Positions 12,252 to 57,608 of a stretch of 64,000 nt of DNA are shown in pieces. Under the pieces are notes generated by a model. That model was not told the DNA's origin and ran no database searches. It saw only the letters and a list, made by a program, of their open reading frames with translations. A program made the translations under genes and the position numbers. The DNA lies in contig NC_073401.1 of the NCBI RefSeq assembly GCF_028641065.1, positions 30,814,001 through 30,878,000 of the forward strand, read 5' to 3'. The number at the start of each line of letters is the position of its first letter. The stretch's first letter is position 1. Source of the DNA: Leucoraja erinacea. Its lineage: Eukaryota.

Positions 12252-12960
12252 CTGAAACAGAAGATTGCAACGCTGGAAGTAACCTGGCACGGCTGGACCC
12301 AGAATTAGCACAAATATCAATCTTCAACAGCTGCCACTGACATTCACACACGGGACTGAATGCATTTTGGGTAACATTTGAATAAGGGTTTATGCAAGAT
12401 TTATGTAAGACTACAGTGGTGCAGGAAGGAACTGCAGATGCTGGTTTACACCGAAGATAGACGCAAAATGCTGGGGTAACTCAGCGGGACAGACAGCATC
12501 TCCGGAGAGAGGGAATGGGTCCTGAAACGTCACCCATTCCTTCTCTCCAGAGTTGCTGCCTGTCCTGCTGAGTTAATCCAGCATTTTGTGTCTATCATAT
12601 ATACAAGTACAGCACAGGAACAGGCCCTTCAACACTCAATGTCTGTTCCGTTTATGGATTAATGGGGCAACAACTCTGGTTATCTAATCGCTCATAATAT
12701 GTAGATTAAAAGGAAACATTGTACATTCTACTTCGTGGACCATGGGAAAAAATATATTATTGTGGTACAAAGATGCCAATTCTGATCTCAGTACAGAAAG
12801 TAACAGTAATAGGGACAATTGTGGAACTTCAACTGGCTAGTTTTCAGGTCAATGTAAAAATATTCAGTTAGAAACCCTAGCGCACGCACATTACTCATTC
12901 ACACTCAACATTAAAATGAAGCAGTTAGCCAAAATAGCAACAAATCAGAGAAGATCCATA

Positions 12961-13145
12961 GGTAGACAAAAGTGCTGGAGAAACTCACCGGGTGCAGCAG
13001 CATCTATGGAGCGAAGGAAATAGGCAACGTTTCAAGACGAAACGTTGCCTATTTCCTTCACTCCATAGATGCTGCTGCACCCGCTGAGTTTCTCCAGCAC
13101 TTTTGTCTGCCTTCGATTTTCCAGCATCTGCAGTTCCTTCTTAAA
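12961..13145 (+). mobile_element. Fold-back Penelope pseudo-LTR mini-insertion with 15-bp TSD
   Basis: Inverted arms meet at AACGTTTC-AAGAC-GAAACGTT. CAGAGAAGATCCATA is duplicated at 12946-12960 and 13146-13160. Confidence 0.8.
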
Positions 13146-13755
13146 CAGAGAAGATCCATAACCATTTGTTAAAGGCTCGGCGTGGCTATTTCTATTTGGC
13201 ACTTGTACATTTTCAATATTCACTGTTCATCGCCTGTATGGAAGTATTTTACAACCCAGGCTGCTGGTGAAAGACCCTGTGGATCACTGTCCCTTCATGT
13301 GCCTTTATCAAACAAGGTACCCAGAAGTGGGTATTAATCTTCAAACCCACAGCCTTGACATTTATTGCAATGTGAAAGAAACAGAGTGCTGGAGTAACTC
13401 AGCAGTTCAGGCATCATCTCTGGAGAACATGGATGGGTGATGTATTGGGCCGGGACTCTTTTTCAGACTCAAGGATTACTTCAGACTTGAGCCTGAAATG
13501 TCATCTATCCATGTTCTCCAGGGATATTACCAGACCTGCTGAGTTACTCCAGCACTTTGTCTCTTTTCTTGTTCCTTGCGTCTTGTCTTTCTCGTTGTCC
13601 CAGCACCTGCAGTTCCTTGTTTCTACATTAGAGCAATTTACTTAGGTTTCACCTCTGTCACATTCGCAACTGTTCTGCTCACTCAAGTCTTACGGAAGAC
13701 ACTGGCTCTGGGAAACTGTTAAGAAATTGACCCTTGTAAATAAACGTTAACCTAC

Positions 13756-13864
13756 CTGCACTGGTGACGGCCTCACTCCCTCCAATGGGCAACAGGTTCC
13801 ACCATACATCTTTTTCTGCTGAAAAACCCATGGCACCAAGGCTCGATTATGGACTCCTATTTCA
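13756..13864 (-). CDS. TRMT2A: TRMT2A exon 3 (EIGVHNRALVPWVFQQKKMYGGTCCPLEGVRPSPVQ)
   Basis: TAG acceptor, GTAGGT donor, 109 nt, phase 2 to phase 0. Read by hand. Confidence 0.95.
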
Positions 13865-13924
13865 CTAATGGTTGAACAAAAAGATCACAAGGGAAACAAT
13901 GACACTGAAGTAAATTAGGAAAAT

Positions 13925-14230
13925 GGTCGGCACGATGGCCACAGTAGAGCAACTGCCTTCCATCGCCAGAGACCCGGGTTCAGTCCTGACTACGGGTGTT
14001 GTCTGTATGGACTATGTACATTCTCCCCGTGACCGTGTGTGTTTACTCCAACATCTTGGTTCCTCCCACTCTCCAAAGCCATACAGGTTTGTAGGTTAAT
14101 TGGCTTGGTATGAGTGTAAAATTGTCCCCAGTGTGTTTAGGGTAGTGTTAATGTGCGGAGATCGCTGGTCAGTACAGACTCGGTGGGCTGAAGGGCCTGT
14201 TTCCGCACTGTATCTCTAACTAAACTAAAA
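13925..14230 (+). mobile_element. tRNA-derived V-SINE (HE1-like), near full length
   Basis: tRNA-like head, V-domain, and 3' tail GGGCTGAAGGGCCTGTTTCCGCACTGTATCTCTAAC(TAAAC)n. Confidence 0.8.
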
Positions 14231-14629
14231 TAAACAGAAGGAGGACAAGGAGAGGTACAAAGTGCTGGAGTAACTCAGATCAGGCAGCATCTCTGGAGAC
14301 AAAGGGAGATTTATATCCAGAGATGCTGCCTGACCCGCTGAGTTACTCCATCACTTTGTGTTTGTCTTCGGTATAAACCAGCATCTGCAGTTCCTTTCTG
14401 CACAGAAGTAAGACTAATCCATGTGCAACTCTCCAAAATATGGGGAACCTTTTACCTCACTCCACTTCTCTGCACTAACCCCATGCACCTTCACATCTAT
14501 TGGCCGCAGACTTGAATATATTCAAAAACGGCAGCAAATTCTCAAGATCTTTCACTATCTGGATGAAAGATTTCCATGCCGAATGGCTGCCCCAGGATTC
14601 TCCCAGGGAGAGGAAAATGTAATCCTTGA

Positions 14630-15035
14630 GCTGGAAAGTACGCGGGGAAAATTTACGAGGACATTGCCACGGGTCGAGGGCTTGAGCTACAGGGAGAGGT
14701 TGGACGGGCCAGGACTTTATTCCTTGGTGCTTAGGAGGATGAGGGGTAATCTTATAGACGTGTATAAAATCATGAGAATAGATAGGGTGAATGAACAGAG
14801 ACCAAGGTACGGGAATCAAGAACCAGAGGACATAAGTTCAAGGGAAAGATTTAACGGGAATATGAGGGGCAAGGTTTTCACTCAGAGGGTGGTGGGTATA
14901 TGGAACAAGCTGCCAGAGGAGGTAGTTGAAGCAGGTACTTTAACGCCATTAAAAAAACACTTGGACAGGTACATGGATCTTGGTCGGCATGGACGAGTTG
15001 GGCTGAAGGGTCCATTCCCATGCTGTATGACATGA
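14630..15035 (+). mobile_element. CR1-type LINE 3' fragment
   Basis: Translates to the CR1 ORF2 C-terminus (GLSYRERLD..GLYSL..RRMRGNLIDVYKIM...FTQRVVGIWNKLP). Confidence 0.8.
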
Positions 15036-15396
15036 CTCCCATCATTTATTATTGTCATATCTTGTCAGAGAGATTGCAGTTGTGGGGTGGGAAAACAATT
15101 AGCATTATTCCCTCTCCCATGTGAACGCGTGGGATTGCTTCGGGTGCTCCAGTTTCCTCCCACATCCCAAAGACGTGCGGGGGTGTAGGTTAATTGGCCG
15201 GCTATAAAATTGCTCCTAGTGTGTGTGGGGGAGATGAGTGGTCCAACAGAGAATTAGTGTGAATGGGTGATCGATGGTTGGCATGGACTTGGTGGGCTAA
15301 AGAGCCTGTTTCCATGCTGTATCTCTAAACTAAAATATGATAACATTTGTTGCTTTACCATCAAACTCAGAATCCCAAGGGGGGTAACGTACATAC

Positions 15397-16025
15397 GTGG
15401 TCAATGTTCCCAAGACGTGCAAGACATTCTTCTCTTTCTTTTTCAATTGCTCTTCATAGGGAACTTTCCACAGAGGGGTCACAACATCTGCGATTTGCTC
15501 ACTTAAAGGTCTATCTAAAACTTCCACAGCAGCCGGACGTTTCAGGTCATGATCATCATTCTCCTGGCCTTCCTGCTTTCGTTTTTTGGCAATAGGATCT
15601 GCTTTTGGCTTTGCTAATCGGACACGCAAATTCCTGTTCTTCCAGACTTGCCCCTGAAGGACTTGCATGGCTTGGTCTCGATCTTTTTCTTCTTTAAAAG
15701 TCACAAATGCATAAGGTTGCTTTCCAAATAGTTTGATTTTATGTGGAACCAGATTATTCCTGCTGAGGAATTTCCTTAAATCACTGAAGCTCACGAACTT
15801 TGGGAGGTTCTGAATTTCAATCTTGTAAATCTCAGATGTGAAAAGATCGCCTTTGATATATCGATAGACGTCTTCCCCAGGCTCATCAGTTTCCACCCGA
15901 GTTTCATCCGGGGGGCTGGACTTTTCACTTTCCTCCATCACTCTTGAATCCGTCAGCTCACATGTCTCGCTTTGAACAACTCCAGGAGATACACTGGCTC
16001 CTTCTTCAGCCATGGTGCCGAGATT
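15397..16025 (-). CDS. TRMT2A: TRMT2A exon 2 (RRM domain: LFTSEIYKIEIQNLPK...AFVTF...LRVRLAKPKADP); second in-frame ATG at 16013
   Basis: TTTTAG acceptor at 16027-16026, GTATGT donor at 15396, 629 nt. Overlaps ORF 15330..16013. Confidence 0.95.
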
Positions 16026-16148
16026 CTAAAACACGAACATCATCATTCATTACTATTATACCCCATGCTACGGACTGACAGACAATTCATCAACCGTTTG
16101 TAATTTAGGTATCTTATTGTCAAACATTTCTGTTATTATTTCAACAAC

Positions 16149-16271
16149 GTGAACAGATGCTGGGTTAAGTCTTCAGTCTGAAGAAGGGTCTCAACCTGAA
16201 ATGTCACACAGTCCTTCTCTGCAGAGATGCTGCCTGTCCTGTTGAGTTACTCCAGCAGTTTGTGTCTACCC
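16149..16271 (+). mobile_element. Penelope pseudo-LTR mini-insertion with hammerhead-like core and 14-bp TSD
   Basis: Contains CTGAAGAAGGGTCTCAACCTGAAATGTC. ATTATTTCAACAAC occurs at 16135-16148 and 16272-16285. Confidence 0.7.
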
Positions 16272-17349
16272 ATTATTTCAACAACTCTACCTTCAGAAGA
16301 ATGATTAGCAAATCAACGCAAGCTCTCATTTTTCTTAACAACCGAGGTATGTTAAGAACATAAGTGCGTAGAGCACAGGAATAGTCCTTTTGGCCCACAA
16401 TGCCTGGGTGAACCTGATGCCAACTACCATCTGCCTGCACGTGATCCATATCCCTCCATTTCCTCAATAGCTGTGCCTATCCAAAAGTCTCTTAAATGCC
16501 AGTGGTGTATCAGCTTCCACCACCAACCCCTGCAGCGAGTTCCAAGCATTCAGCACCCTCTATGTAAAAAACTTGTTCCATACAAATCCTCACCTTAAAC
16601 CTCTTGCTTCTAGCAGTTGATATTTCTATCCTGGGGAAATAGGTTCTGACTGTCTACCCTATCTATGCCTCTCATAATTTTCCACACTTCTATTAGGTCT
16701 CCTCTCAACCTCCACGTCACAGAGAAAACAATCCAAGACTGTCCAACTCTCCCTGTAGCTAATACCCCTCATGCAGGTACCATTCTGGTCTGAATCTGAA
16801 TAAGGGTCTCGACCTGAAACATCACCCATTCATTCTCTCCAGAGATGCTGCTTGTCCCACTGAGTTGCTCCAGCATTTTGTGTCTACCTTTGGTTTAAAC
16901 CAGCATCTGCAGTTCCTTCGTACACCATTCTGGTAAACCCCCTCAGCGCCCTTTCCAAAGCCTCCATATTCTTCCTGTTATGGAGCCACCAGAATTGCCT
17001 TTGGGAATGTCATCCTATACGTATATATCAACCAAAGTGAACACTATGGGCGTTAAATGCAATAGGTATCGATTGTTGCAAGAACAACAGTAAATTCATG
17101 GTTATGGTCAGGAGAAAAATACCTTTTTAAAAAACAGGATTGAACATTAAGACTGTTCTGATAACACTGTGCACTATTTCTAATAAGAAATCTGAAGGCA
17201 ATATTATATTTTTAAAAGAATTAGGACTGCGACTGGAAGAAACAGATGTTCATTTATAGATTGCTGCAACGGGTTTTAAGAATCAAAAGAACCATCAATA
17301 TTAAAGAAATGGGTGCAACTAAGTGTTGGAGTAACTCAAGAGGGGGTCA

Positions 17350-18930: not shown

Positions 18931-18953
18931 ATCCTGCACCTGTTCTTCTGTTT

Positions 18954-19139
18954 AAGAAGGAACTGCAGATGCTGGAAAATCGAAGGTACACAAAAATACT
19001 GGAGAAACTCAGCGGGGGCAGCAGCATCTATGGAGCGAAGGAAATAGGCAACGTTTCGGGCCGAAACATTGCCTATTTCCTTCACTCCATATAGATGCTG
19101 CTGCCCCCTCTGAGTTTCTCCAGCATTTTTGTGTACCTT
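18954..19139 (-). mobile_element. Fold-back Penelope pseudo-LTR mini-insertion with 15-bp TSD
   Basis: Inverted arms meet at GTTTCGG-G-CCGAAAC. CCTGTTCTTCTGTTT occurs at 18939-18953 and 19140-19154. Confidence 0.8.
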
Positions 19140-19863
19140 CCTGTTCTTCTGTTTCAATCTTTAGATTATTATCACATGTACCGAGGAACAGTGATAAAAC
19201 ATTTGGTTAAGTCTGGCAGCATCCCTGGAGAACACGGATAGATGTGACACAAAGTACTGGGGTAAATCATGTAGGCAGGAACTGCAGATGGTGGTTTACA
19301 CCAAAGATATAGACACAAAATGCTGGAGTAACTGCATTTCCAGAGATGTTGCCTGTCCCGCTGAGTTACTCCAGCATTTTGTGTCCACAATGGGTCAGGC
19401 AGCAGCACATCAATATTCATCAGTCGACATAAATACTTTAAAATGTTTTAAATGATGAGAGGGATAGACAGAGTTGACGTGGATAAGCTTTTCCCCACTG
19501 AGGGTAGGGAAGATTAGGGAAGATAGGGAAAACAAGAGGACGTGACTTGAGAATGAAGGGACAGAAGTTTAGGGGTAACATGAGGGGGAACTTCTTTACT
19601 CAGAGAGTGGTGGCTGTGTGGAATGAGCTTCCAGTGAAGATGGTGGAGGCAGGTTCGATTTTATCATTTAAAAATAAATTGGATAGTTATTCTCAGGGAG
19701 GGGAAAGGAATGGAGGGTTATGGTCTGAGTGCAGGTAGATGGGACTAGGGGAGAATACGTGTTCGGCACGGACTAGAAGGGCCGAGCTGGGCCGTTTCCG
19801 TGCTGTAATTGTTATATGGTTATATAAATACACGATTTAGCTGCAGCTCGCGGGCCTACTCAC

Positions 19864-19875
19864 AGTTTGTGACAT
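19864..19875 (-). CDS. TRMT2A: TRMT2A exon 1 coding part (MSQT)
   Basis: ATG TCA CAA ACT|GTGAGT. Phase 0, in frame with exon 2 (NLGTMAEEG). The Kozak context is weak, so the exon may act mostly as 5' UTR. Confidence 0.6.
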
Positions 19876-20246
19876 CAATTAACGGTCTCAGGCCACGATC
19901 CGCCTCCCGGGCGCCGCCATTTTGTGAAGTCATCGCCGGGGCATTGTGGGATCAGGCTGAGGCGGAGCGATGGCTGAGGTAACGCATTTGCCCAAATGCT
20001 AGGTTTATATTTAATATACTCCGTGCTAATGATAATACGAAGCAGTTTTAGAATAAAAACAATGGATATGAGCAGCTTGCGCGGCGTTAAGAGGAGGTGC
20101 TGGAGAGGTCTGGAGGCCGGCCTCCGGTTGCTAGGGAGGCCATATTGGACCGGGGTGAAGTGGGAGCAAAATCAAGCGCGAAAGTAAAAGAGCCGGACAA
20201 GCTTTTATTGTTTGTCACCCGTAATCTAACCCCATCCTCCCTTAAA
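19876..20246. promoter_or_regulatory. Bidirectional TRMT2A/RANBP1 CpG-rich promoter
   Basis: Lies between divergent first exons. YY1 CCGCCATTTT at 19914-19923, ZNF143/Staf-like GCATTGTGGGA at 19941-19951, RFX-like GTTGCTAGG at 20127-20135, reverse CCAAT (ATTGG) at 20144-20148, E2F GCGCGAAA at 20176-20183. Confidence 0.85.
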
Positions 20247-20261
20247 ATGGCAGACGAGAGA
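20247..20261 (+). CDS. RANBP1: RANBP1 exon 1 coding part (MADER)
   Basis: AAAATGG Kozak context, AGA|GTAAGT donor, 5 codons, phase 0 (like human MAAAK). Confidence 0.85.
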
Positions 20262-23224
20262 GTAAGTATTCACACGCACTTGAAGCTCAACATCTCTGCT
20301 TCACATCCAAGCTGATATTGCTTCTGTATGTTTGAAAGCCGACGGTTAATTTTAAAGTGTACCAAAGTCACCATTATATGCCGGGCTTTTTATTTATTGG
20401 AGATGGGGAGGCCTCTGTCATTCGTATCGACGGCCAAGATTCATTGAAAACCGCTATCCGTAAATCCTCTATTTGCGCTATGCGGATTAAATTTTTTATT
20501 TTCTTTGTAAGTTCATTTTTTTTTTCTCATTGAAACCTCGTCTCCTCTACAGTAACATCCATCCCTGGCTTGGTCCAGCACTGGCCTAAACGAATGTGAA
20601 TCAGTTACAATCCATATAATCGGGTTTCTTCGTGTGTCTTTATATTTAAATGTGCGTTTTTTTCCCCCCCGCATTTGTTGAATTAATGGGGATCGAATAT
20701 TGTGCGACAGAATATTTATAAGGTATAGTGTTTTTTTTTTTCTCTCTCCCCAGCTAGTCTAAAATATGAGGTAATGTCTACTGGACTTGTATCCTCGATG
20801 GAAAAGCGTGCTTCTTCTACCTTCAAACATTTATTAACATTTCTTTGAAAATTACAGATCAGTCCCGAAATCTTCTCACGAGATTACACAGCCTTTTTTT
20901 TTTTTTACGTGTTCCTCATTAAATCTCCCTTTAAACTAAGTACAGGAGATCATTTTGTAAATTCCCGAGTTTTGTTTTCTGTGGCAGGTGATTTTCTCTT
21001 GCCAGTTATTAAATTAATTTGTGGATTTTCCCCCCCCTGAAAAACAAAGTTCTGCAGGAACTGGACAAAATCCGTGGAGGGAATGGACAGACATGCCACC
21101 TAACCCTCCAAAATTCTTCCAGCATTTTGCTGGAATCTAGAGAAAAAAGTCTATTCTCTTTCAATTTTTACAGTTGATATCAACGTTTTATTTTAGGAAG
21201 TTGATGATTTTCCCAGTCATTTTCACATAATTCGCTTTTTTTTCCAAAATCGTTCTTGGTATAGAGCTATATAACGTGTACTTTCTCCCTATGCACGTTT
21301 TCTCTGTAAGAATTTTCTGGTAGGACTGTTAACTTTTTAATGGTATGTTGGCACAGCCTCATTTGTTCCAGGCCAAAAGCTTGGGTTCTTGTCCTTTTGA
21401 ATTTAACTCCAAAATTATTGCAATATTAATTTGTATCCTTCCATGAATATGTTCTTTACAACGCACAATATTTAACAACTTTTAAGGATTACATTTATTG
21501 TATGCAGAATTTCTGGATTTTATGAGAATCTGAGGATACAATTAACTAACACTTATTTAAGTCCAGAACAAGAAGGTATGGTGAGGGGGAAACTAGAACC
21601 TAAGAGTGAAGTTAGAAAATACCCATGAAAGCAGGTTGTGATAAAAGTTTGAAATCCCTTGACAAACAACAGTAAATACAATTTGTTTATTTTAAATTTG
21701 AATTTTTGTTAAGCAGAGATATTAAGAGAAATGGGACAAAGCTGTGCATAACAGTTTGAATGGGGGAACAAGTTTAAGGGCGCACATGCCTGCTTCCTGT
21801 TGGACTGTTATGTTCCTGTCTTTATTTCCAAGTACTCGTGAATTCTTAGTTTTTTTCTTTATGTACCTGAAATGAACGGAGGTTGGCTGCTTCATAGTGC
21901 ACGTATCCAAAAGAGATAAAAAGAACTGCATCCTCATTTATTCATGAGGTGTGGAATTGTATTCTGGTTAATAATTTTCTGTGAATTTCATCATATTTGG
22001 GAGCATTTGCATTTTCGTTATTTACTTTTAGCAATTGCTTGATTGTGTGTCCAGTAGCAGATAATGGTCTATTTAAAATCTGTTATTTTAGTAACACTTG
22101 TTTTGACATTTAAAGCTTCCCTTCCCCTGACCACAGCATTTTGCTTGCGTATAGGAAGGAACTGCAGATGCTAGTTTAAACCGAAGATAGACACAAAATA
22201 CTGGAGTAACTCAATGGGGGGCAGCATCTCTGGAGAGAAGGAATGGATGAAGTTTTACGTTCAGAACTTTCTCACCCGATTCAGACCTAAAATGTCACCC
22301 ATTCCTTCCCTCCAGAGATGCTGCCTGCCCCCACTGAGTTACTCCAGCATTTTGTGTCTATTTCGCCAGTTAACAAATGCTTTTATATCTTAGTTGTTAT
22401 AAAGCATTCTGAGATTGTATACCATTGGAGCGTAGCTGGCATTCTCTATGCGTTTTTGTTCCCCTCGTTCAGTTTGAGCTCTAGTCACTCATCTAGATTG
22501 TTTGCATTATAATCCTACAGTGACCAGTCAGCATTTTTGAATGGGGCAAGATCTTAATGCTAATGCTTTGGAGCTAGTTAGTGTGATGTTTTCTTCTTGG
22601 TTTAATGATATGCAACCTGGCTTTCGAGCAATAACTCTAATAATCGCAACTTTGCAAACTACCTAAATTGTTCACATGCACAAATAATGAAAAGACTGGT
22701 GTAAGCAACTACAAATAGATCATTACACCGACTGGGTTTTGCAACCAAATCTTGAGAAATATGATGCAGTTTAAGGAGAGGAAAGGTTTCATGAAATGAA
22801 GCTAGTAGGAGATGAAGATAAAAATTAACTGTATAATGATGACATCAAAGGTGGGAGAAATTGTTTAGGGAAATACTTAATGCAGTAAACTGACTGGAAA
22901 TTGTTATGTTCTTGTCCATACATTACACTTGCAGATTAGAGCAACATCAGAATTACAAATTTTCCAAAATATTGACATGTAGCTAAGTTGGAAGTTCAAC
23001 TTTAGTATGTTATTCTCCAGATCGCTGTAAGTAGCTGCTCCATAAATAACATGTAGAATTAAATGTTTCTTTAATCAACAAATAATTACAATAGCTATTA
23101 TATAAGGTAGGATTAATATAATGGAATGATACTAAAAATGCTTGTAATTCTGAAATAAAAACAAACTGCTGGAAATATTCAACTGTTTGGCAGCTTCCAT
23201 ATAAAGAAACACAAATAATGTTTT

Positions 23225-23431
23225 TGTTTAAGAAGGAACTGTAGATGCTGGAAAAATCAAAGGTAGTTAAAAATGCTGGAGAAACTCAGCGGGTGAGGCA
23301 GCATCTATGGAGCGAAGGAAAAGGTGACGTTTCGGGTCTGAAAAAGGGTCTCGACCCAAAGCATCACCTTTTCCTTCACACCATAGATGCTACCTCACCC
23401 GCTGAGTTTCTCCAGCATTTTTATCTACCTT
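23225..23431. mobile_element. Fold-back Penelope pseudo-LTR mini-insertion with 12-bp TSD
   Basis: Inverted arms around a degenerate hammerhead core (CTGAAAAAGGGTCTCGACCCAAAGC). AAATAATGTTTT occurs at 23213-23224 and 23432-23443. Confidence 0.75.
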
Positions 23432-23508
23432 AAATAATGTTTTCAGTATTTTTTTTAATTTAGTTTTAAAAGGATATCTGTTTCACTTATCTGGTTTGTC
23501 TACTGCAG

Positions 23509-23645: not shown

Positions 23646-25320
23646 GTAAGTAATATATGACGTATAGCAAGTCTGCTTATTGTGCTGGCAACTAGCTCAA
23701 TATGATTTGTATGGGTAGGTGTTTGATAAACATATTAATTTCATAGGTTGGTGTCTAATGCTCTGCTGCAGATTGTTTTGTAATTCCAATTTCTGTTTGA
23801 TTAGCATCTTGGACTTTCAGTTTGGAGTTTACCCAAGAAAGTAGATTCACTTTCTTCTTATTCTGGCCCCTTTTTGTGGCATCTTGAGATCTCCAGCATT
23901 GGCTTCCTGTTTTCCTCTGCCATGCTTTTCATTTTGAATCTCTAATTCTGATCTGTTTAATAATAATAGTGGGAAATAAGTAACTTCTATTTATGTAGGC
24001 TTTGATTACACGGTGTAGCACCATAAATTACTTTAACTTGTTTGATGGTGTCTTTATTGCCGCATACACAGAGATACATTGAAACGCTTGTTCTGCAAGT
24101 TATCCATCAAATCATACCGTACATGAATACAATAGATCCTCTCCTGGAAAAACACACTTGGCGTTTCCATGTTCTCACTTCCATCTTCCAACTTCCAAGT
24201 CTCTGGAACATCAGATCTTTATCTAAACAGACATGCAATTTAGAGGTACAGCGCGGAAACAGGCCCACCAGGTTGGCGCCGACCAGCGATCCCGGCACAA
24301 TAACACTACCCTACACACGCCAGGGACTATGTTTACATTTACCAAGCCAATTAACCTACAAACCTGTACGTCTTTGGAGTATGGGAGAAACCCGAAGATT
24401 TCAGAGAAAACCCACGCAGAACATGGGGAGTAATATTGACCATGATACCAGGGTCCACCCTTCTCCTTGTCAAATAGTGTAATGAGAGTTTAGGGCCCCG
24501 ACCGCCCTGACGTGGGGGCTTCGATCGCCCCAACTGCAGATGGTTCGACTGCCCCAACCGCAGGAGAATAAAGAGGAAAGAAGATTAGACTTTGTTGCCT
24601 TCCATCACAGTGAAGAATGTGGGGAATCTGCTGTGGTGGATGTTTATGTTGACTTTTATGTAGTAGTGTGTCTTGTTGCTTTTTTTAGTATGACTGTATG
24701 GTAAATCAAGTTTCACTGTACCTTAATTGGTACACATGACAATAAAATGCTCTTTGAACCTTTGACAGGGCAATGACACTTCGTGGAAAATTCTGTAATT
24801 TGAGCACAGATTTCTCTGAAATGTCTTAAATCCACAGCAATTTGACTATGAAACAACTCTACTTCTATTTGAGTCATGGGTACCCCATATAAAATTCATG
24901 ATTTTGAGGATTATTTAGACTTATTAAAATTGAAAGGATTCTCTGTGGGAAATGATAGGCTCGGTTTTACCTTGGTTTAACATTTTTACATTAAAATGAG
25001 AATTCTGTGTAACCAATAGATTGGAGCACCTTGTATTCCAAACATTCAAATGAATTGCACTAAACTGACCAAAGCTCACATGCTCTCTTTTTCCCAGCGT
25101 ATTAACACTGACCAAGCGTACATTTTGGGTTGTGGGAATCTTCTAGCCTTGTAAGGAGCTCACCAAACTGTTCACTGAACAACGTTTTCTCTTTTCCCAA
25201 TCCATCTGGAGAGATAATTTAATGATCTGCATTTTCCTCGAAAAAGTAAATGATGTCCAAGTGTTTAGAAAAGTCTGGCGGTAGGATTTAAACGACCAAA
25301 CTTTGTTTTTGTTTCGACAG

Positions 25321-25478
25321 GCGTGCAAAGCTCTTTAGATATGCCTCCGAGAATGACCCTCCTGAATGGAAAGAACGAGGAACTGGAGATGTGAAGTTGT
25401 TGAAACACAAGGAAAGGGGAACAATTCGCCTTCTGATGAGGAGAGATAAAACTCTCAAAATCTGTGCAAACCATTATC
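25321..25478 (+). CDS. RANBP1: RANBP1 exon 3 ([29 protein letters not shown]...KICANHY)
   Basis: CAG acceptor, GTAGGT donor, 158 nt. Confidence 0.96.
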
Positions 25479-26487
25479 GTAGGTCACTTCACTCAAATTC
25501 CAAATGTAGCTTTGCTGTTGGCAGTTGTAAACTATGCTAGACTTTTCTTGGGAATTAATATTTCTTTTTTAAGTTGCTCCTATTGCGTGGTGGTAAAATC
25601 TCTGAATGTTCATGAAATCTCCTTGTGACTGGAATTGTTCTGTTTTGAATAGTATATATTGTGAATGTGAGGTGCTGCTTCCTTTTATTCGCTAAAGGAA
25701 GAATTGCCTGTTGAAATGCTATGGTAATCGGTATGAAAATATGCTGTTCAGAACTAGAAGGAAGTCTGAAAAAATAGAGATGACATTGATGGTGAAATCT
25801 GTACTCTGGGAATCAGAAATAGTAGCAAGCACTCTACCTGGTTTCCCCTCCTCCACTTTTTTTTTCCCCCACATTAATTAATTTAACCATGGTTCAATGT
25901 GCAGTTAATGAATGTGTGATGATATAAACATTTATGCAGTGAACTACAAAGAGGATAAGAATCGATTACAGCTGGGAGAATGGGTAGACAATGGCACATG
26001 AAATTTAATGCAGAGGAAATGGGCTTGATCAGGGTCCTTGTTTAGCCAAGATTTCTGTTGTTGGCAGCACTTAAAAGCATCTATGGCTGTCAAATAAAGA
26101 CCAAATGTCATTGGGTTATACTAGCCTTGCTGTTCAACACGTGATACAGAGTTTTTTCGGGTTCATATACAAACAATGTGCACAGAATTGGGCCAATAAA
26201 AGGCATTATCTCTGGTGGACTGAAGCAATGGCCAGATAATTAAGAAAGCATTATTTCAAAATTAGTTTGATATTTTTCTGGCCTTTTGAAAATATTGGCT
26301 GTCTACAATTGAGGAACTGTCTTTTGGACCAAAGTGAATCTGTTTTTATTCTTTCCATTTTACAAAAAATATATAGAAATGTGCAGCTAATTCAGTCATC
26401 TACCAAAATGAAACTTTTTTTTACAATAAGCAATTAAAATAAAAAAAATAAAAAAAATTGATTCATGGGCATTAATTTAATTTCTAG

Positions 26488-26616
26488 TTACACCTTCCAT
26501 GGAGCTGAGGCCTAATGTGGGAAGTGACCGGGCATGGGTGTGGAATGCACCTGCTGATTTTGCAGATGAAGAACCCAAACCTGAGTTGCTGGCTATCCGG
26601 TTCCTGAACAAAGAAA
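26488..26616 (+). CDS. RANBP1: RANBP1 exon 4 ([42 protein letters not shown])
   Basis: TTTCTAG acceptor, GTAAGT donor, 129 nt. Confidence 0.96.
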
Positions 26617-26739
26617 GTAAGTATTAGACTGAAAATAAATGTCTCTATATATACATTTTTGATCTTGAAGATAACAAAACTGAAATTATATACTACAAAG
26701 ATTAACATGCCATAGTGTTCCATGATATTTTGCAGAGAA

Positions 26740-28005: not shown

Positions 28006-28777
28006 AGTATTGCCAGCTATTTGTTCTGTACCTTTTCCTACCTCTAGTTTCCCTTTCCCCTGACTCTCAGTCTGAAGCAGGGTCTCGTCCTGAATCGTCA
28101 ACTGTTCCTTTTCTCCAGAGATGCTGCCTGACCCGCTGAGTTACTCAAGAATCGAGAGTTTTATTGTCATGTGTCCCAGACGGGACAATGACATTCTTAC
28201 TTGCTGCAGCACAACAGAATATGTGAACATAATACAGAACGGGAGATAAAAATTCAGTGTGTCTATAGACCATATATACACAATAAATAAACAGATAAAG
28301 TGCAATAGTAATTTTTGTAGTAATAATTCCAACATTTATAATTCCAACACCAACAAATAATAGTAAGAATTCCAACATCTTATCTTCTGGAAAACTCATT
28401 TGACTTGACAAATCCTACATGTCAGTGAGCAGTGGAATTTAAGTTCAGTTAATAGTGAGAATTTTAATGTCCAGTCATAGATAATGATGCCACAATGGTC
28501 TGCCTCTGGCCCCTCACCTGATTTGGCTTTATGTGGCCCCAGACGCGTGATGGTATATAGGATTGGTGTCTGACCCCCTGAAATTCCATGCAGAGCAGCT
28601 CAATTCAAAAGCAGTTTGAGATGAGTGACAAATAATGCAGGTTAGTGCTGCCCAGATCCTTAAAAATAGACAAATTGTTGAGGGAGGGTGTGGGGGTAAG
28701 GAGAAGCAACATTTAAAAAAAAAAAACAATAGTGCCTGGAACACAACTATCCACTCGGGTGTAGGAAGATGCCTTAT

Positions 28778-33754: not shown

Positions 33755-34140
33755 GTAATCCTGGTCCCCGTTTCCCTTTCCTTTTTTTACAGCAGACTGT
33801 AATGAACTGGGTGTGGGCACGGATGAGCTCTTCCAGGCTCTTGCCCTGCGATCCCAAATTGGTTATGAAGATACAGTACCTTCACAGAATGTCATTCCTC
33901 AGTCATCAGCCACCATAAATGTGCTAGTGTATTCCTTGGTGAAAATTCTAGGAGTGTTAACTACTGCCTTATCTATTTACAGTCTTCTGAGAGATAATTT
34001 AAATCTATTGCTTTAATTTCTCAAAATTGGTGAATATAACATTGCTTTACAGTGTATGACTGACTTTTTAAAAAAAACTGTTTTGTGAATGAGACTTAAT
34101 GTCAGAATTCCCACATTGGGTAGCAGATGGTTTATAACCA

Positions 34141-34146
34141 AATAAA
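34141..34146 (+). terminator. RANBP1 candidate poly(A) signal (distal alternative at 34974-34979)
   Basis: AATAAA ~390 nt after the stop codon, followed by a U-rich stretch. Confidence 0.6.
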
Positions 34147-37100
34147 ATTCAGTTAAGTTGTACATGGAAAAAGAAAAACTCTTAGGTTTTTTTTATTATA
34201 ACTTTTGCCCTTCAATGGTTCTGGGCCAAATATGACACAAATGCTGGAAGATTACATTTAAGATTTTTTTAAATTTTTACTCGTTTTTTTTTTTCTCCCC
34301 CCTTCCCCCCCCGTCTAAATTGGTAACTGACAGATTACATAATAGAAAGATTAGTGGCAAGTTCATTGCAGGTTTGGTTAAAGATTTATCTTGACAACTG
34401 TTAGACTGCAAAAAGGAGAAACAGGTAGAGATTTCTGGTGTAATTTAACCAGGTTTGGTCTATGTCGTGCAGCAGGAGATTGGTGTAGTGTCAATGCCCT
34501 CCGGCTGGAACAGTTCTTGCCCCAGTGGCACCCCTTAGTAAACCGATACTGGTCCCAATACATTGCTATCAGATCGTGAACTGACACCAAATATTGTCTG
34601 ATGGTACTACTATAATGCACGACTAATGCATGTAAAGAGGGAGTGGTGCTGATGGTTTCACAATGGATTTCTTTGATTTTCCTGCTGGCTCCAGCTTTGC
34701 TGTTGACACACGGCATTATCTGTAGCGGTCACCATACAATTGGCTTGCACGACATCAGTTATACAGGCTTTACCTACAGAAAAGATTGATCAGCATGAAA
34801 GCTAGAACCTGTTCTGATAAAGTTCGCGTTTGCATTTGCTTGCCCTGGACCACATTTGTGTATAATCTTTTTTTTCTGTTGGAATGAACAAACCATCTTG
34901 ATCTACTGTTTTGTAATGGGGGAAACTTATAAATGAAACTGTTGAGAATTGCTACATTCGTTAGGAAATTTGCAATAAAGGTTTTTGCAAACAGCATGCA
35001 GTGCAAAGAAGGTACTTGTAGGGTGTTTGAATTGATTTGCTTTATTTTTCTGTTTGCTTCCACCATCAGGCTACATTTGCATTAAGAACGTTTCCCATTG
35101 TACATAAGTGCAGCAAGATAGGTCTCAGCAGTTTATCTGAACATTCAAAACTCTTGTAGAAACCAGGAACTCAGCAGGTCAGGCAGTATCTGGAGAACAT
35201 GGATAGGTGATGTTTTGGGTTGGGACCTTTCTTCAGACTGATCTGACATCAAAACCTGAAATGTCGCCTATCTATGTTCTTCATTTAAAACTCATTATTT
35301 GGTTATTTTAGTATTGTGCGATGCACCATCACTGTCAGGTGTAGGATTTGATACAGAACTAAGTCTTGGCTTCATTAGGAGGAAGGGTTCTGTATTATTG
35401 ACTGTGACTTTGATTCCATGCTCATAGTTACTGTTGGCAGGACTGGTGAATACTGCAGATGCTGGAATTTCGAGCAAAAGGCACAAAACGCTAAAGGAAC
35501 TCAGTGGGCCAGGCAGCATCCCTAAAAAATATAGATCGGTGATGTTGTGTGTCAGATCTGAATAATGGCCCTGACCCAAAACATCACATATCCATGTTCT
35601 CCAAGGATGCTGCCAGACCTGCTAAGTTACTCCAACACTTTCTCTTTTCTTTCATTCATTGTATTTGTGTGCTGGCTGCATTCAACTGCTGAATTTGACC
35701 TGCCTTGGGGGATATGGGCAGAAGGCAGGAACAGGGTACTGATTGGGGATGATCAGCCATGATTACATTGAATGGCGGTGCTGGCTCGAACGGGCTGAGT
35801 GGCCTACTCCTGCACCTAATGTCTATCGCCTTTGTTCTGCCCTATGAATATAGAACTAGATCTTGTTAATGAACAGATCAGTCCGTAAGTTCAGGACACT
35901 TAAAAATATTTTGTGAATATTGGCATTATGTTCTGTGCATAAAGGGCCTACTTTTATGTACCTTTATGTTTTATGAATCTTGATAGTTGGTTTAAGTTGC
36001 TACACCGTTGTGCACATCGCTTGCCATTTACCTCCCAAAAATGTTGTTGAATTGCGTGATAATTTATCAAAGGCAGAAGTAAAATGTGTGGAAATAGCTT
36101 TTTAATTATTTGTTTTTAACTGCAGCACATAAGTAAACGGTACAAACTCTCTCATTTCTACACATAAGAAAATGCCAGTTATTTTAAATGTCCATGCTTT
36201 TCTCAAATCATTCTTTTATCTATCTGATTTTACTTTTCATTTTCTTTGTTTTTAATTCTCAGCACGTCCCATTGCCCAGTAAAATGCAAGTTGCTTTTGT
36301 TATGCAATTAGTACGTGGCACTATTCACAACACGTTGTAGTTCAGGGGTGAGGAGGTGCAGAAGTAAAGAATGGCCAGCAGTGTGTGTTGTGATAGCAAT
36401 AGTGTAAGAAATGCTTGCAATCATTTTAATTTTATCTGGTCCAGGGTTGCCTTGTTGCACTTTTTACACGCCTTGTAATTTAGTATTTCAGCACCAGAGG
36501 GAGCAAGAGGCTTCGTTTTCTATTGCACTAGACATTCCACTGCAATAACCTGTGTTGCCAGTGCTAGTATGGAGATAGAATCTGTCTTTGTTAGCTTAGT
36601 GTAGATGCAAGGAACTGCAGATGCTAGTTTACAAAAATGGATACAAAGTGTTGGAGTAACTTAGTGGGTTGGGCAGTGTCTGGAGGGAAGGAATGGGAAA
36701 TATTTCACTGAAGAATTTCCTGACCTAAAGTGTCACCTATCCATGTTCTCCAGAGATGTTGCCTGATCTGTTGAGTAACTCCAGCACTTTGTGTCTTTTT
36801 TTCAACAACTTAATATTTGTTGCACTGCCACCATGAGTTGATGGCAGTGGAGTGAGGGGTTGCAAGACCTGAGTGTAAATGAGAATGAAATTTGCTGCCT
36901 AGCCTTGTTAGGTGCAAAATGACATATAGTAGACAAGGAAATTAAAGTGAAAAGTTAAGATGAGACATTTTTAAACTCCATAAGAACCATGTTGAGACTT
37001 CAGAGTTTAAATATATTAAGGTAATGACTGACATTATACTGACAATTGCCATTCACTCCTGAATTGTTACTACTGTATAAGTATCGAGCAAAGTGAATCT

Positions 37101-37817
37101 AGCCCACTCACTATGGTACACCCTTGTTACAGAGCTTCAAAGACTTACCATCGAACGTTGCCATTTGTTTCCTACCTTCAAACTACTTTTGCATCTAATT
37201 GGCTAACTTGTCCTAGATCCTATGTGATCTGATCTTGCAGGTACAATCACATTGTTTAAGAAACATTTAGACAGATGCATGTATAGATATGTTTAGAGGG
37301 ATAAGGGCCAAAGGCAGGTGGGACTACTGTAGATGGTACATGTTTTGATCAGTGTGCGCAAGTTGCATCCAAGGGCCTGTTTCCACGCTGCACGACTATA
37401 GCTCTATGACCGGCCTACCATGCGTAACCTTGTCAAAGGCCTCGCTGAAGTCCACTAAGCCAACGTATACCGCACCACCCTCATCAATTTTCTTGGTCAT
37501 CTCTTCAAAAAACATGGTCACCAATTAATCCAGTAAGGAATGTGTGAGAAACGGCGAGTACAGTGAATGGTTGAAATGTGAAACTCCCAGTGACGTGAGA
37601 TGAATATTGGGTTATGGTCATACAGCACGGAAACAGTTCCCTTCGGCCCAACTTGCCCCTGCCGACCAAGATGACTCATCTACGCTAGTCCCACCTGCCT
37701 GTATTTGGCTTGTTTACCTCAACCTTTCCTATTCATTTTCCCTTCCAAATGTTATAGTACCTGCCTCATCGACCTCCTTTCGCAGTTCATTCCATGTACC
37801 CACCACCCTCTGAAAAG

Positions 37818-38597
37818 TTTAAGAAAGAACTGCAGTTGCTGGAAAAATCGAACGTAGACAAACAAGCTGGAGAAACTCAGCGGGTGAGGCAGCATCTATG
37901 GAGCGAAGGAATAGGCGATATTTCGGGCCGAGACCCTTCTTCAGACTTCTGCTTTCCGCAGAGACCGTTCCCTCCGTAACTCCCTGGTCAATTCGTCCCT
38001 TCTCACCCAAACCACCCCCTCCCCTGGTACTTTCCCTCGCAACCGCAGGAAATGCTACACTTGTCGTGTTGCCTCCCCCTCAACTCCATCCAAGGACCTA
38101 AACAATCTTTCCAGGCGAGGCAGAGGTTCACCTGCACCTCCTCCAACCTCATCTACTGCATCCGCTCTACATCGGTGAGACCAAGCGCAGGCTTGGCAAT
38201 CGCTTCGTCCAACAACTCCGCTCGGTTCGCAATATCCAACCTGACCTCCTGGTGGCTAAGCACTTCAACTCCCCCTCCATTTCCGAATCCGACCTTTCTG
38301 TCCTGGGCCTCCTCCATGGCCAGAGTGAGGCCCACTGCAAATTGGAGGAACAGCACCTCATATTTTGTTTACATCCCAGTGGTAGGAACATTGACTTCTC
38401 CAATTTCAGGTAGTCCTTGCTTTCTCCCTCCTTCCCCTCCCCAGCTCTCCCACAGCCTACTGTCTCCCCCTCTTCCTTTCTTTTTCTTGCTCCCCGACAT
38501 CAGTCTGAAGAAGGGTCTCGACCTGAAACGTCGCCTATTCCTTCGCTGCATAAATGCTGCCTCACCTGCTGAGTTTCTCCAGCTTTTTTGTCTACCC
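37818..38597 (+). mobile_element. Penelope-like element (Neptune-type), 5'-truncated: inverted pLTR, GIY-YIG endonuclease remnant, direct pLTR
   Basis: Frameshifted translation AFRRDRSLRNSLV...NRRKCYTC...FTCTSSNLIYCIR..LYIGETKRRLGNRF...HFNS...EEQHLIF. 37818-37947 is an inverted copy of the terminal repeat at ~38500-38597. Confidence 0.88.
38501..38536 (+). ncRNA. Minimal type I hammerhead-ribozyme motif in the Penelope pLTR
   Basis: CUGAAGA at 38505-38511, stem II GGGU/CUCG/ACCU, GAAAC at 38525-38529, GUC at 38530-38532. Stem III is reduced to palindromic ACGU and stem I is weak. Activity untested. Confidence 0.6.
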
Positions 38598-40574
38598 TCT
38601 GTGAAAAGGTTGCCCCTCGGGTTCCTATTAAATCTTTCTCCTCTCACCTTATATGCATGCCCCCCCCCCCCCCCCCCCATAGTTCTTGATTCCCCTATAC
38701 TGTGTTTTAAAAAAAAACTCTAAACTCACCCTATCTTAATCCATTTTTATACGCCTTGATAAGATCACCCCCTCGGCGCTCCCCAGTAATATGGGTACAT
38801 TTCAGGGGAAATGATAACCACATGAAAAAGATGGGAATAAAATAATTTAAGAATTGTCAGAGGAACATAAGACAGGAAGAGACTCGTGTGGAGTGTAAAA
38901 AACTAGCACAGACCCGTGAGGCTGAAGGGTCTGCTTCCATTTCATGTAATTCGCTCCATTGTCTGAACATCTACTGATAGCTCAATTAAAACCAAGGCAG
39001 AATTTAATTAAAAAATCCGCAAAAACAATGTTAAACTGTTCTGATGTATCATCGTATTAAAGCAGTGCAAGGCAGGGTTAGAATGCACAGTGTGAGTAAA
39101 TCTTGCAATTTGGAAGATCAGAGGCTTTGATTTCTGGTGTATCATGAGTTTATCATTGCAGTCCGGCTTGACTGAGCTGCAGCTATTGATTTGAGCTTTC
39201 CAATGCTTGGCAGGGGAAAATTGGCCAGGAGATCATCTGGTGCTGATGCTTTGTTCGATAGTGGGTGGGTATATTTTTCAAAGACAGGACTGGGAATGCA
39301 ATAGACTCCACAGACAATTGGCCTGTTGATAATCAAAATCTTGGTTCACAGGTGGAGAGGTTAATTCAACATAGATGGGGCAAGTAAGCAAAAAAAAACA
39401 GGTCATCTGTTCGGGGATAGACTCCGTTCTTTCTGAAACAAAGACAGAGATGGGTCAGAACAAGATTGGGGCTGAAGATGAAATCCCAGGAACAATGGAG
39501 ATTCCTGCACAATGGAATAGTTCACCAACACTTGGAGTAATTGTTACTGAGGTGTCATTTTGTGGAAATAAGCCTTAACTGGAATTCCAACGTGTAACTC
39601 GTTAAATAACTTCTCATGCACAAACGTGTTGTTGTTAGAATCATGAGTATTTAATTGTCATGTGTATGTGCTGACAAGGGAACAATTATATTCTTACTCC
39701 CTCTCCCATCGGGCAGAAGGTATAGAAGAGTGAAAATGCACATCTCCAGATTCAGGGACAGTTCCTTCCCAGCTGTTATCAGGCAACTGAATAATCCTAC
39801 CACAACTGGATAGCCGTTGTTGGGGGAGTCCAGCTCCAGGGGCCACAGTTTAAGAATAAGGGGTAAGCCATTCAGAACAGAGACGATGAAACACTTTTTC
39901 TCACAGAGAGTTGTGAGTCTGTGGAATTCTCTGCCTTGGTGGAGGCCGGTTCTCTGGATAATTTCAAGAGAGCCAGATAAGGCTCTTAAAGATAGTGGAG
40001 TCAGGGGATATGGGGAGAAAGGCAGGAACAGGGTATTGATTGGGGATGATCAGCTATGATCACATTGAATGGCGGTGCTGGCTCGAAGGGCTGAATGGCC
40101 TACTCCTGCACCTATTGTCTGAACTACTATCTACCTCATTGGAGACCCTCGGACTATCTTTGATCGGACTTTACTGGCTTTATCTTGCACTCAACGTTAT
40201 TTCCTTTATCATGTATCTGTATACGGTGGATGGCTCGATTGTAATCATGTATTGTCTTTCCGCTGACTGGTCAGCGTCAGGGCGGTCGAAGCTCCCGCCG
40301 TTGGAGCTCCCAAAGTCGATCAAGAGGCAAAGAGGCTGCCAGCACCACGATGCCAAGCCGCAGCGCGGATGTAGATACGATACGGAAAAAGTCGCATCTT
40401 CATCGAGGAAAGAGATTAAATGTTTCCCCCCACCTTCCATATAATACAACACTAAAGATAAACTAAAACATACATTTAACAACAAACTAAAAACAACAAA
40501 AGAAGAAAAGGACGAGACAGACTATTAACGAGGCTGCCATCGTGTGGCACCACCCAGTATCCAAACGAACTATA

Positions 40575-42075
40575 GAAAGAGGCAGTGCCACGCATGCAGG
40601 TACAGCTCGGTGGTGGGGAAGGTGCTGGAGTCAATAATAAAAGATGAGATAGCCGCACATTTGGATAGCAGTAACAGGATCAGTTCAAGTGAGTTTATTG
40701 TCATGTGTCCCTGATAGGACAATGAAATTCTTGCTTTACTTCAGCACAACAGAACATAATAGGCATTAACTAGGTCCGAGTCAGCATGGATTTACGAAGG
40801 GGAAATCATGCTTGACTAATCTTCTGGAATTTTTTGAAGATGTAACTAGGAAAATGGACAAGGGAGAGCCAGTGGATGTAGTGTACCTGGACTTTCAGAG
40901 AGCATTTGATAAGGTCCCACATAGGAGATTAGTGGGCAACATTAGGGCACATGGTATTGGGGGTAGAGTGCTGAGTTGGAACTCAGTCTGGAGAACAGTT
41001 CCTTGTCAGGGTGGGCAGTCAAAACCTTTCTTGCAAGGACTCTCTTGTAAGGGAGTAGATTGCTGACATGGATAGAGAAGTGGTTGGCAGACAGGAAACA
41101 AAGAGCAGGGATTAACGGGTTCCTTTCAGAATGGCAGGCAGTGACTAGTGGGGTACCGCAAGGCTCGGTGCTGGGACCACAGCTATTTACAATATACATC
41201 AATGATTTGGATGAAGGGATTCAAAGTAATATTAACAAATTTGCAGATGACACAAAGCTGGTTGGCAGTGTGAACTGTGAGGAGGATGCTATGAGAATGC
41301 AGGGTGACTTGGACTGGTTGGGGGAGTGGGCAGATGCATGGCAGATGAAGTTTAATGTGGATAAATGTGAGGCTATCCACTTTGGTAGCAAAAACAGGAA
41401 GGCAGATTACTATCTAAATGGCGTCAAGTTGGGGAAGAGGAAACGGGATCTGGGGGTCCTTGTACATCAGTCTATGAAAGTAAGCATGCAGGTACAGCAG
41501 ACAGTGAAGAAAGCGAATGGCATGTTGGCCTTTATAATGAGAGGAATCGAATATAGGAGCAAAGAGGTCCTGCAGTTGTACAGAGCCCTAGTGAGACCAC
41601 ACCTGGAGTATTGTGTGCAGTTTTGGTCCCCTAATTTGAGGAAGGACATTCTTGCTATTGAGGGAGTGCAGCGTAGGTTTACAAGGTTAATTCCCGGGAT
41701 GGCAGGACTGTCATATGCTGAGAGAATGGAGCAGCTGGGCTTGTACACTCTGGAGTTTAGAAGGATGAGAGGGATCTCATTGAAACATATAAGATTGTTA
41801 AGGGCTTGGACATGCTAGAGACAGGAAACATGTTCCCGATGTTGGGAGAGTCCAGAACCAGGGGCCACAGTTTAAGAATAAGGAGTAAGCCATTTAGAAC
41901 AGAGACGAGGAAACACTTTTTCTTACAGAGAGTGGTGAGTCTATGGAATTCTTTGCCTCAGGTGGAGGCCGGTTCTCTGGATGCTTTCAAGAGAGAGCTA
42001 GATAGGGCTCTTAAAAATAGTGGAGTCAGGGGATATGGGGAGAAGGGCCAAATGGCCTATTCCTGCACCTATTGT
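40575..42075 (+). mobile_element. CR1-type LINE, 5'-truncated, RT domain largely open
   Basis: ORFs 40812..41066 and 41060..41818: VYLDFQRAFDKVPH, SGVPQGSVLGPQLF, KFADDTKL, RPHLEYCVQFWSP. Interrupted by short inserts at ~40685-40770 and ~40975-41060. Confidence 0.92.
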
Positions 42076-42136
42076 CTTAATTAAATGTGTCATCCCAAAT
42101 TGCACATTAATGGAACAGGTCACTTAATAACCATAG

Positions 42137-42248
42137 ACCCTGAAACATCACCATTTCCTTCTCTCCAGAGATGCTGCTTGTCCCGCTGAATTACTCCAGC
42201 TTTTTGTGTTTATCTTTGGTTTAAACCAGCATCTGCAGTACTTTCTTA
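42137..42248 (+). mobile_element. Single-arm Penelope pLTR insertion with 16-bp TSD
   Basis: Begins inside the hammerhead stem II (ACCCTGAAACATC). CACTTAATAACCATAG occurs at 42121-42136 and 42249-42264. Confidence 0.75.
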
Positions 42249-42989
42249 CACTTAATAACCATAGGCTGCTAAAGACCACATCATCTTCCCCCGCTTCTGT
42301 TCTTATGTTTATAAGGGACTAGACCAAGTTACTCTCAACAGCAATAAATAAAACCCAATTCAAAAACAATACTTCCATTCAGTCACAAACATTAATTTGA
42401 GCAACAGGGGAATTGATCCAATGGATTTTATCTGGCTTTATAGATGCTGGTTGACTGATTAGTGGATTTGATTCGATGGTTAATCCCTTTGATGCCTCCT
42501 CAGATCCTCCTGTTTACTGAAACTGTCTGGATTATCTGGGCCTTGTTTCACTTGGAGCACAATAAAGCATTGCCTTCAGAGCACTAAAGTGCTAGTCTAT
42601 TTTCTGATCATTCCCATGGACATGGCAAACATTTAAAACCTACCTATGGTGATGGGGAGTCAGTTTCTTGGAGTAAAGGTAGTCCCACCGTAGAAATGCA
42701 GTTGTAACTGGGGAGTTCTCGAGATGCTGCCTGATTTGCTGAGTTACTCCAGCACTGTGTGTCTTTTTTGTAAACCAGCAACTGCACTTCCTTGTTGCCA
42801 GAGATCCCTTTTATGTGACATTGGTATCTGGGAAGAGAAACACACACACTGCCATCTTGATGGATTAATATGGGCAACTTTCTTTGAGGTTAGCAGTAAG
42901 TGAAGTTGTTTTAATAGTGACAGTACTATTTTCTGATCGAAGAGTTGTCATGAATAATACACCATATCCCTTCTCCCCCCCTCTCTCCC

Positions 42990-57501: not shown

Positions 57502-57608
57502 GTAAGTGTCTCAATCAGCTATTTAATTTAAATTTTGGTATTTCTGTTTTGTGAAGTTTCAATAGAGTCATGAGTATTTTATTGTCATATGTCCCAAACA
57601 GTGCTATG

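Follow-up and report, generated by a model that had tools for sequence, protein, structure and literature searches.

Why do so many short repeats fold back on themselves at a hammerhead ribozyme motif, and does the ribozyme have a hand in making them? The question is raised by a stretch of 64,000 nucleotides of Leucoraja erinacea (NCBI RefSeq assembly GCF_028641065.1, contig NC_073401.1, positions 30,814,001 to 30,878,000 of the forward strand), called the window in what follows, over which such repeats are dispersed. An earlier note, made from the sequence alone, had linked them to the terminal repeat of a Penelope-like element (PLE) and left two options, extreme truncations or a self-propagating non-autonomous hairpin family, with hammerhead self-cleavage suggested to define the template end. 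The first option is the one borne out: the repeats are, in all probability, dead and very short insertions of several subfamilies of endonuclease-bearing (EN+) PLEs, and the hairpins were likely made anew at each site by double priming on an RNA that had not been cut by the ribozyme.

Positions are numbered from the C of the CTGAAGA box, which is +1 and lies at 38505 in the window, the base in front of it being -1; the predicted hammerhead cut, 3' of GUC, lies between +28 and +29. We call “arm” a single stretch derived from the pseudo-long terminal repeat (pLTR), with either a long-tail (L) end at about +121 to +131 or a short (S) end at about +92 to +96. The sample comprised 100 pieces of ten kb each, taken at round coordinates from contigs C1-C36 (1.0 Mb of a genome of 2.19 Gb), together with the window itself and 20 pieces next to it, in total 1.264 Mb. 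In the window, 44 BLAST matches to the 3' part of the 37946-38600 element were obtained, and the final pipeline retained 38 pLTR arms and 12 head-to-head (tails-out) fold-backs; seven exact target-site duplications (TSDs) of 11-16 bp were found where at least six had been announced, and the dispersed repeats, their common sequence and their inverted arms were all as the earlier note had described them (Table 1). The whole sample contains 587 arms, 431 of them in the spaced pieces, which extrapolates to about 0.9 million arms and about 170,000 fold-backs genome-wide (78 per Mb). Instead of the two subfamilies first proposed, at least six are present, each with copies that retain their own 3' untranslated region (UTR), so that both of the subfamilies first recognized have longer parents; every A2 haplotype tested has UTR-linked members. 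An orphan lineage made of short copies only was apparent at one stage (0 of 10-11 UTR-linked) and was rejected after a wider test (3/26 and 3/29 UTR-linked).

The element at 37813-38597 ends in the same sequence as the repeats, as had been claimed, and had been taken for the Penelope parent; it is itself a 5'-truncated, frameshifted stub, a 3' fragment of about 650 nt with an inverted 135-nt arm, and Pfam gave no match on either of its frames. A 37-residue piece of it yielded 24,369 candidates in the genome, of which 150 were scored; 20 scored relatives with long open frames carry reverse transcriptase (RT)-type motifs, recognized by eye, and a C-x4-C-x2-C linker. Pfam found no RT match in the open reading frames (ORFs) of these relatives, and GIY-YIG matches in two of three ORFs (E 5e-4 and 0.014) that are weak and below the curated cut-off. 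At locus L300 the pLTR tail continues directly into the element body, as in Penelope, and this continuity was seen at 29 of 30 further loci, six of which are partial tandems. The Penelope-like origin is, thus, upheld: RT-type and GIY-YIG motifs, a tail running into the unit, and an inverted truncated pLTR with a one-sided tail and a TSD of variable length are those of EN+ PLEs. A CX2-5CxxC linker before GIY-YIG defines the Neptune clade in the description of PMC8557442, and because of its C-x4-C-x2-C linker, which Nematis and Naiad share, the parent is assigned, on sequence grounds, to a putative Neptune type.

Three observations on the longer copies deserve to be mentioned in their own right. 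In L276, L277, L290, L293, and L321, the inverted arms extend 100-550 nt into the 3' UTR and the end of the ORF, so an inverted cDNA (complementary DNA) can also derive from the 3' pLTR. The PLE copy at L003:1192-1661 has a classical L1-type 5' inversion of an upstream ORF segment beside the usual inverted pLTR. Finally, L004, L005, L006, and L007 share the same truncated PLE piece and the same upstream neighbour, which suggests that PLE fragments are carried inside another repeat.

The 5' ends tell whether the ribozyme set the end of the template. Plotted relative to GUC, as the earlier note had proposed, they pile up at -5 to +4, about 30 bases before the predicted cut, and not at the cut itself. 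Among 176 fold-back arms with unambiguous seams, 160 fall within -8 to +45, with 43 at -5 to +1 (18.1 expected per 6 nt, p 5e-8) and 11 at +26 to +31, around the cut (18.1 expected, p 0.98). Body-linked copies, 29 of 30 of which could be mapped, start at -5 to +4 in 13 cases, extend upstream as partial tandems in 6 and are scattered in 10; none starts at +26 to +31. Genome-wide, we counted exact 20-mers of the A type at three positions, with chance-match corrections of 0.42 (-2), 0.28 (+29) and 0.42 (the control, +34): three non-matching bases stand in front of 2,875 of the 26,166 copies at -2 (about 26% after correction) and of 352 of the 63,727 copies at +29 (about 2%, roughly 13-fold lower); the control position gave 368 copies, or about 1.4%, its own denominator being uncounted. 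The 5' ends avoid the cut, with none of the 29 body-linked copies there; the RNA that served as template was therefore not cut at GUC. In poly(A) reads of another organism and in contigs of two runs of uncertain type, the family is present with no pile-up of ends, and these data are uninformative on starts, cleavage or editing here. A splice acceptor at the same place (CAG/T at -1) was considered and rejected, as no upstream exon common to the copies appears (of the 223 stretches lying upstream, 109 are singletons) and the TSD lies right next to the start in 9 of 30 copies; in D. virilis, according to the account in PMC4209133, an intron ends at helix I.

How the two arms of a hairpin relate to each other is the second line of evidence. 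The sample holds 107 pairs, one hairpin being counted at three same-flank loci together with one further couple with shared flanks; 13 are unclassifiable, and the other 94 are distributed as 78 L+S, 15 S+S, and a single L+L, against 46, 31, and 17 expected under independence (p 1e-11). The 5' ends of the two arms are set independently: among the 78 L+S pairs, the S arm outreaches the L arm on the 5' side by 8 nt or more in 32, the L arm goes further in 14, and both lie within 8 nt in 32; stops at -8 to +2 are found for 28 of the S arms and 14 of the L arms (p 0.018). When the S arm has 5' sequence that is absent from the L arm while the L arm has the tail, neither can be a copy of the other, and so both were primed on RNA; the 37813-38597 element is one such example. 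Sister arms nevertheless appear to come from one source RNA or locus, since they share non-majority variants at 0.016 per column, compared with 0.008 in shuffled pairs of the same family (maximum 0.011 in 1,000), and none of the 107 pairs combines an A arm with a non-A arm. With one mismatch allowed, a TSD is found around 33 of 45 well-preserved L+S pairs of the wider sample and around 4 of 400 controls with mismatched flanks, with a mode at 15-16 bp and a range of 11-20 bp; the TSD adjoins both hairpin ends directly, and each of these ends lies at a fixed position where RT starts. As for the pivots, the symmetric ones fall on the two palindromes of the region, around -1 and +18; the +18 class, to which the fold-back at 18939 belongs, has 1,646 exact 27-mer matches genome-wide, and its centre base comes from the L arm in 5 of 15 cases and from the S arm in 10.

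By analogy with the anole element PAc, we infer that these hairpins were produced by double priming. PAc (Poseidon of Anolis carolinensis) cuts both target strands and extends each of them, its RT starts at two sites that flank the tail, and a dimer is predicted for it; its core mutants insert normally, no RNA ends mapping to the ribozyme site (main text of PMC11167929). In the skate family, the target would receive a staggered cut of about 15 bp, and the 3' ends of both nicks would each prime a cDNA on the uncut RNA of the element, one starting at the long-tail site (about +130) and the other at the short site (about +95), with one start per strand; the two cDNA ends would then be joined head to head. 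The -5 to +4 edge would be the 5' end of the RNA, so that priming on the 5' pLTR of the transcript would run off after 95-135 nt. The hammerhead would attract pivots through its self-complementary stretches, which may supply microhomology for the join, rather than through cleavage; at the palindromes (about -1 and +18), two antisense cDNA ends could anneal. A bolder version, which we consider rather unlikely, has a Penelope RT dimer working on one uncut RNA at a 15-16 bp staggered break, each subunit with its own start (about +95 and about +130); the 135-nt solo copies, which would hold the transcription start and both RT starts, would then be SINE-like (short interspersed nuclear element) master templates driven by RNA polymerase II, in need of neither a poly(A) tail nor ribozyme cleavage, and this part is equally doubtful.

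The nature of the edge is where double priming on a run-off template meets its most serious competitor. TCAGT, just before the core, resembles the initiator (Inr) of other pLTRs and is kept in all six subfamilies although their UTRs differ; an Inr-type internal promoter has been described, in the literature available, for Drosophila Penelope and Adineta pLTRs; and in 6 of 30 copies starting at -2, the bases in front repeat, as judged by eye, the first bases of the pLTR, as would an RT reaching the end of its template. All three speak for an RNA 5' end and against a roadblock, at the entry to the C-rich UTR or at a bound protein, met by RT on a long read-through RNA; with such a roadblock the origin of the repeats would be the same, and we regard it as possible, if clearly the less probable of the two. 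It would fit the fact that in all six subfamilies the pyrimidine tract begins at this edge. It would also fit two results that weigh against our reading: short arms and body-linked copies pass through the edge at -3 in equal shares (80/250 and 6/19, the body-linked sample being small), and a cap-G test gave no excess of G at -4 (8 G, 10 A, 9 T, 36 C). The bases at -3, with G in 14, T in 11 and C in 1, point neither way. Other points have to be set on the same side of the balance. Junctions with an overlap of at least 2 nt are only 28 of 107, inserts longer than 10 nt occur in 26 of 107 (14 with pLTR-derived sequence), and later conversion between arms could add to the variants they share. Most arms are unpaired (373 of 587: 139 L, 189 S, 45 unclear), which makes single-ended events the majority, and a short inverted partner was found in only 12 of 306 tested arms. 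Two to three of the 107 pairs are repeat copies of one insertion, and breakpoints, being taken from local alignments to copies that are 6-16% diverged, are accurate to a few bases. As to the cut, 21 of 30 inspected matches of the +29 class are true starts, two of them being arms of one insertion, and this small class exceeds the +34 control by no more than about 1.4-fold, a ratio limited by the uncounted denominator of that control.

The other explanations fare worse. Self-cleavage as the determinant of the template end could draw on the well-kept core of the subfamily majorities and on the 352 exact A-type copies in which the three bases ahead of +29 are missing (in some insertions both arms begin at that point), but it is contradicted by the distributions of ends given above, by the uncut core that most arms retain upstream of the site and by the behaviour of the PAc ribozyme; it is refuted as the main rule here, and we attach hardly any probability to it. 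Self-priming, the model favoured in the text of PMC3846280, in which one cDNA snaps back at a hammerhead palindrome and copies itself, would account for the symmetric pivots at both palindromes, the abundance of exact +18 copies, the variants common to both arms and the 5' ends that agree within 8 nt; the 32 pairs whose S arm holds sequence absent from the tail-bearing L arm exclude it as a general mechanism, and the preponderance of S-arm centre bases runs opposite to what one would expect if a long first strand had folded back, so we hold it to be improbable. One might also see in the density of fold-backs, in the very common junction class and in the S+S hairpin that recurs with the same flanks at three loci the mark of a non-autonomous element spreading as a unit, be it a retroposed hairpin RNA or a miniature inverted-repeat transposable element (MITE). 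Yet junction coordinates differ between nearly all pairs, the seam of the 12946 fold-back occurs once in 2.19 Gb, and the common junction comes with both centre bases and, on either arm, with the variants of different sub-lineages, having arisen independently in several of them. No hairpin clade with one idiosyncratic seam and different flanks or TSDs was found in the 107 pairs; the common internal seam, uniform ends and fixed TSD length of a MITE are likewise missing, and the variable TSDs, the hairpin ends at RT starts and the UTR-linked A2 haplotypes argue in the same direction. The recurring hairpin is cargo inside another repeat. The self-propagating hairpin family is, thus, very improbable.

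That recurring case may be described separately: the S+S hairpin of subfamily B2 with its pivot at -1 (L131:5880-6500, L121:6340-6960, and L112:3516) sits inside a repeat that is rich in GC and, like a MITE or a DNA transposon, carries short inverted ends; its flanks are the same at each locus.

The minimal motif pointed out in the earlier note agrees by its sequence with the description in PMC4209133, and the core boxes, helix II with G10.1-C11.1, the palindromic 15.2-16.2 and the NUH are present in the subfamily majorities; the pairs form in 90.6% of cells over 16 copies, in which covariation is not above that of shuffles, as expected for copies decaying neutrally. In the search with hammerhead models that the note had proposed, the Rfam scan returned no hammerhead model at E<=1 and 22 matches to hairpin-type models, all below the gathering score, and monomer RNA folds were no better than shuffles in three out of three (z -0.9 to +0.2). 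A2 arms have GUU instead of GUC at the cut in 22 of 36. Helix II (+8 to +20) differs among subfamilies with its pairing kept (U-A with a CUCG or CCCG loop; U.G with a UUCG loop); these pairing-preserving changes, together with the A2 GUU, hint at possible past selection on the motif. With the hammerheads of metazoan pLTRs, as PMC4209133 presents them, the motif shares the CUGANGA core, the unpaired base before helix II, G10.1-C11.1, the palindromic 15.2-16.2 without helix III, mostly single dispersed copies, and some opposite-strand pairs 100-700 bp apart; it differs by a helix I of 2 bp (as in D. virilis), a helix II of 4-5 bp, the GUU of one large subfamily, and an activity that is here only predicted.

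The kind of element, the motif and the inverted-pLTR layout have already been described, and the repeats are real, ordinary in kind and useful as a record of mechanism. Complex insertions of EN+ PLEs, such as Pen2a_Av, have an inverted 5'-truncated pLTR, a tail of 30-40 bp at one end and a TSD in the accounts of PMC3846280 and PMC8557442; here too we find head-to-head inverted pLTRs, a one-sided tail, an outer TSD, palindromes at the seam, heavy 5' truncation, and solo pLTRs, but the insertions are mostly pLTR-only and extremely numerous. Self-priming or resolution by the endonuclease is invoked in these accounts, whereas our counts favour two separately primed cDNAs. The likeness with PAc extends to the two RT starts flanking the tail, both strands being cut and extended, an uncut RNA template and a dispensable hammerhead; the PAc data were, however, obtained in vitro and in another clade, and the main text of that study reports neither a single event in which the two starts serve opposite strands nor run-off at an edge just before the core. 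Non-LTR retrozymes (bioRxiv 10.64898/2026.07.22.740005, as far as its text goes) are similarly short, ORF-less, hammerhead-bearing and pLTR-related, but theirs are head-to-tail tandem arrays bounded by cleavage, whereas the copies here are solo or inverted with an uncut core: no head-to-tail array of hammerhead units was seen among the 107 inverted pairs and 373 unpaired arms, and same-strand neighbours within 330 nt number 40 in the sample. In literature consisting mainly of open-access text without supplements, we found nothing about Penelope twin priming, nor about these palindromes in sharks or skates.

For the origin of the inverted pLTRs and one-sided tails of PLEs and for the role of their hammerhead, the family offers a very large fossil sample: its near-exclusive L+S pairing ties the two RT starts known in vitro to opposite target strands, and its break map derives genomic copies from RNA uncut at GUC. 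In the twin priming of L1, both target strands also prime cDNA, with a join at microhomology and the TSD outside, and an upstream, non-overlapping segment is inverted; here, one and the same terminal segment serves as template for both cDNAs, which begin at two fixed positions.

Table 1. Features of the window; signed numbers are positions relative to +1, and TSDs are given by the first position of each copy, with their length.
Position	Strand	Feature	Details	TSD
6725..6908		C fold-back	-6 / +34	
7220..7353	+	solo L copy, C	from -5	
11079..11314		old C fold-back	S arm reaching -3, L arm starting at +16	11079/11303 (12 bp)
12423..12596		B2 fold-back	+29 / +18	
12946..13160		A2 fold-back	S arm (-) 12961-13033, 5-nt seam, L arm (+) 13039-13145	12946-12960/13146-13160 (15 bp)
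13375..13625		C fold-back	-3 / +22; tail broken by an insertion	
14257..14399		short fold-back	+41 / +43	
16135..16285	+	S arm 16173-16271	24-nt inverted tail remnant in front	16135/16272 (14 bp)
16779..16934	+	solo L pLTR	starts at about -1 with 5-nt reiteration	16779/16924 (11 bp)
18939..19154		A2 fold-back	L arm (-) 18954-19059, S arm (+) 19061-19139; pivot on helix II/GAAAC palindrome (centre 19060)	18939/19140 (15 bp)
22152..22365		B2 fold-back	+22 / +16; 28-nt seam	
23213..23443		A1 fold-back	L arm (-) stops at +16, S arm (+) starts at -2; join with about 3 nt microhomology	23213/23432 (12 bp)
28039..28149	+	B1 copy	33 nt of own 3' UTR; second subfamily has own longer parent	
35165..35242	-	C copy	from -6	
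35452..35652		old C fold-back	+16 / -5	
36608..36802		C fold-back	+42 / +1	
37813..37947	-	inverted L arm of truncated coding stub	-3 to +129	
37948..38597	+	5'-truncated, frameshifted 3' fragment, Neptune-like PLE	Cys linker, GIY-YIG remnant, pyrimidine-rich UTR, pLTR ending at short site	
38503..38534	+	minimal type I hammerhead motif	2-bp helix I, CUGAAGA core, unpaired A, 4-5 bp helix II, GAAA, palindromic ACGU; predicted cut after 38532	
42121..42264	+	solo L pLTR	starts at +16	42121/42249 (16 bp)
56731..56826	+	solo S copy, C	from -1	
60940..61133		pLTR fragment 60940-60974, then fold-back 60989-61133	+7 / +42	

The host genes named in the earlier note, TRMT2A, RANBP1 and SCARB1, stand in part: Pfam confirmed exons of Ran_BP1 (25292-26624, plus strand) and of the CD36 family (57341-57502, plus strand), and its support for a methyltransferase exon on the minus strand (6452-6649) is weak. 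Intronic copies would form the predicted double-stranded RNA stems if transcribed. Fragments at 39830-42070 look, by eye, like what we take to be a CR1-type long interspersed nuclear element with other repeats inserted. Two long inverted repeats also lie in the window: at 54900-55473, a repeat of 219 nt, 99% complementary and with a 136-nt spacer, is a young MITE-like element unrelated to the pLTR; and at 56051-56630, a second one has nested arms of about 275 nt (92-94%) and a 31-nt loop.

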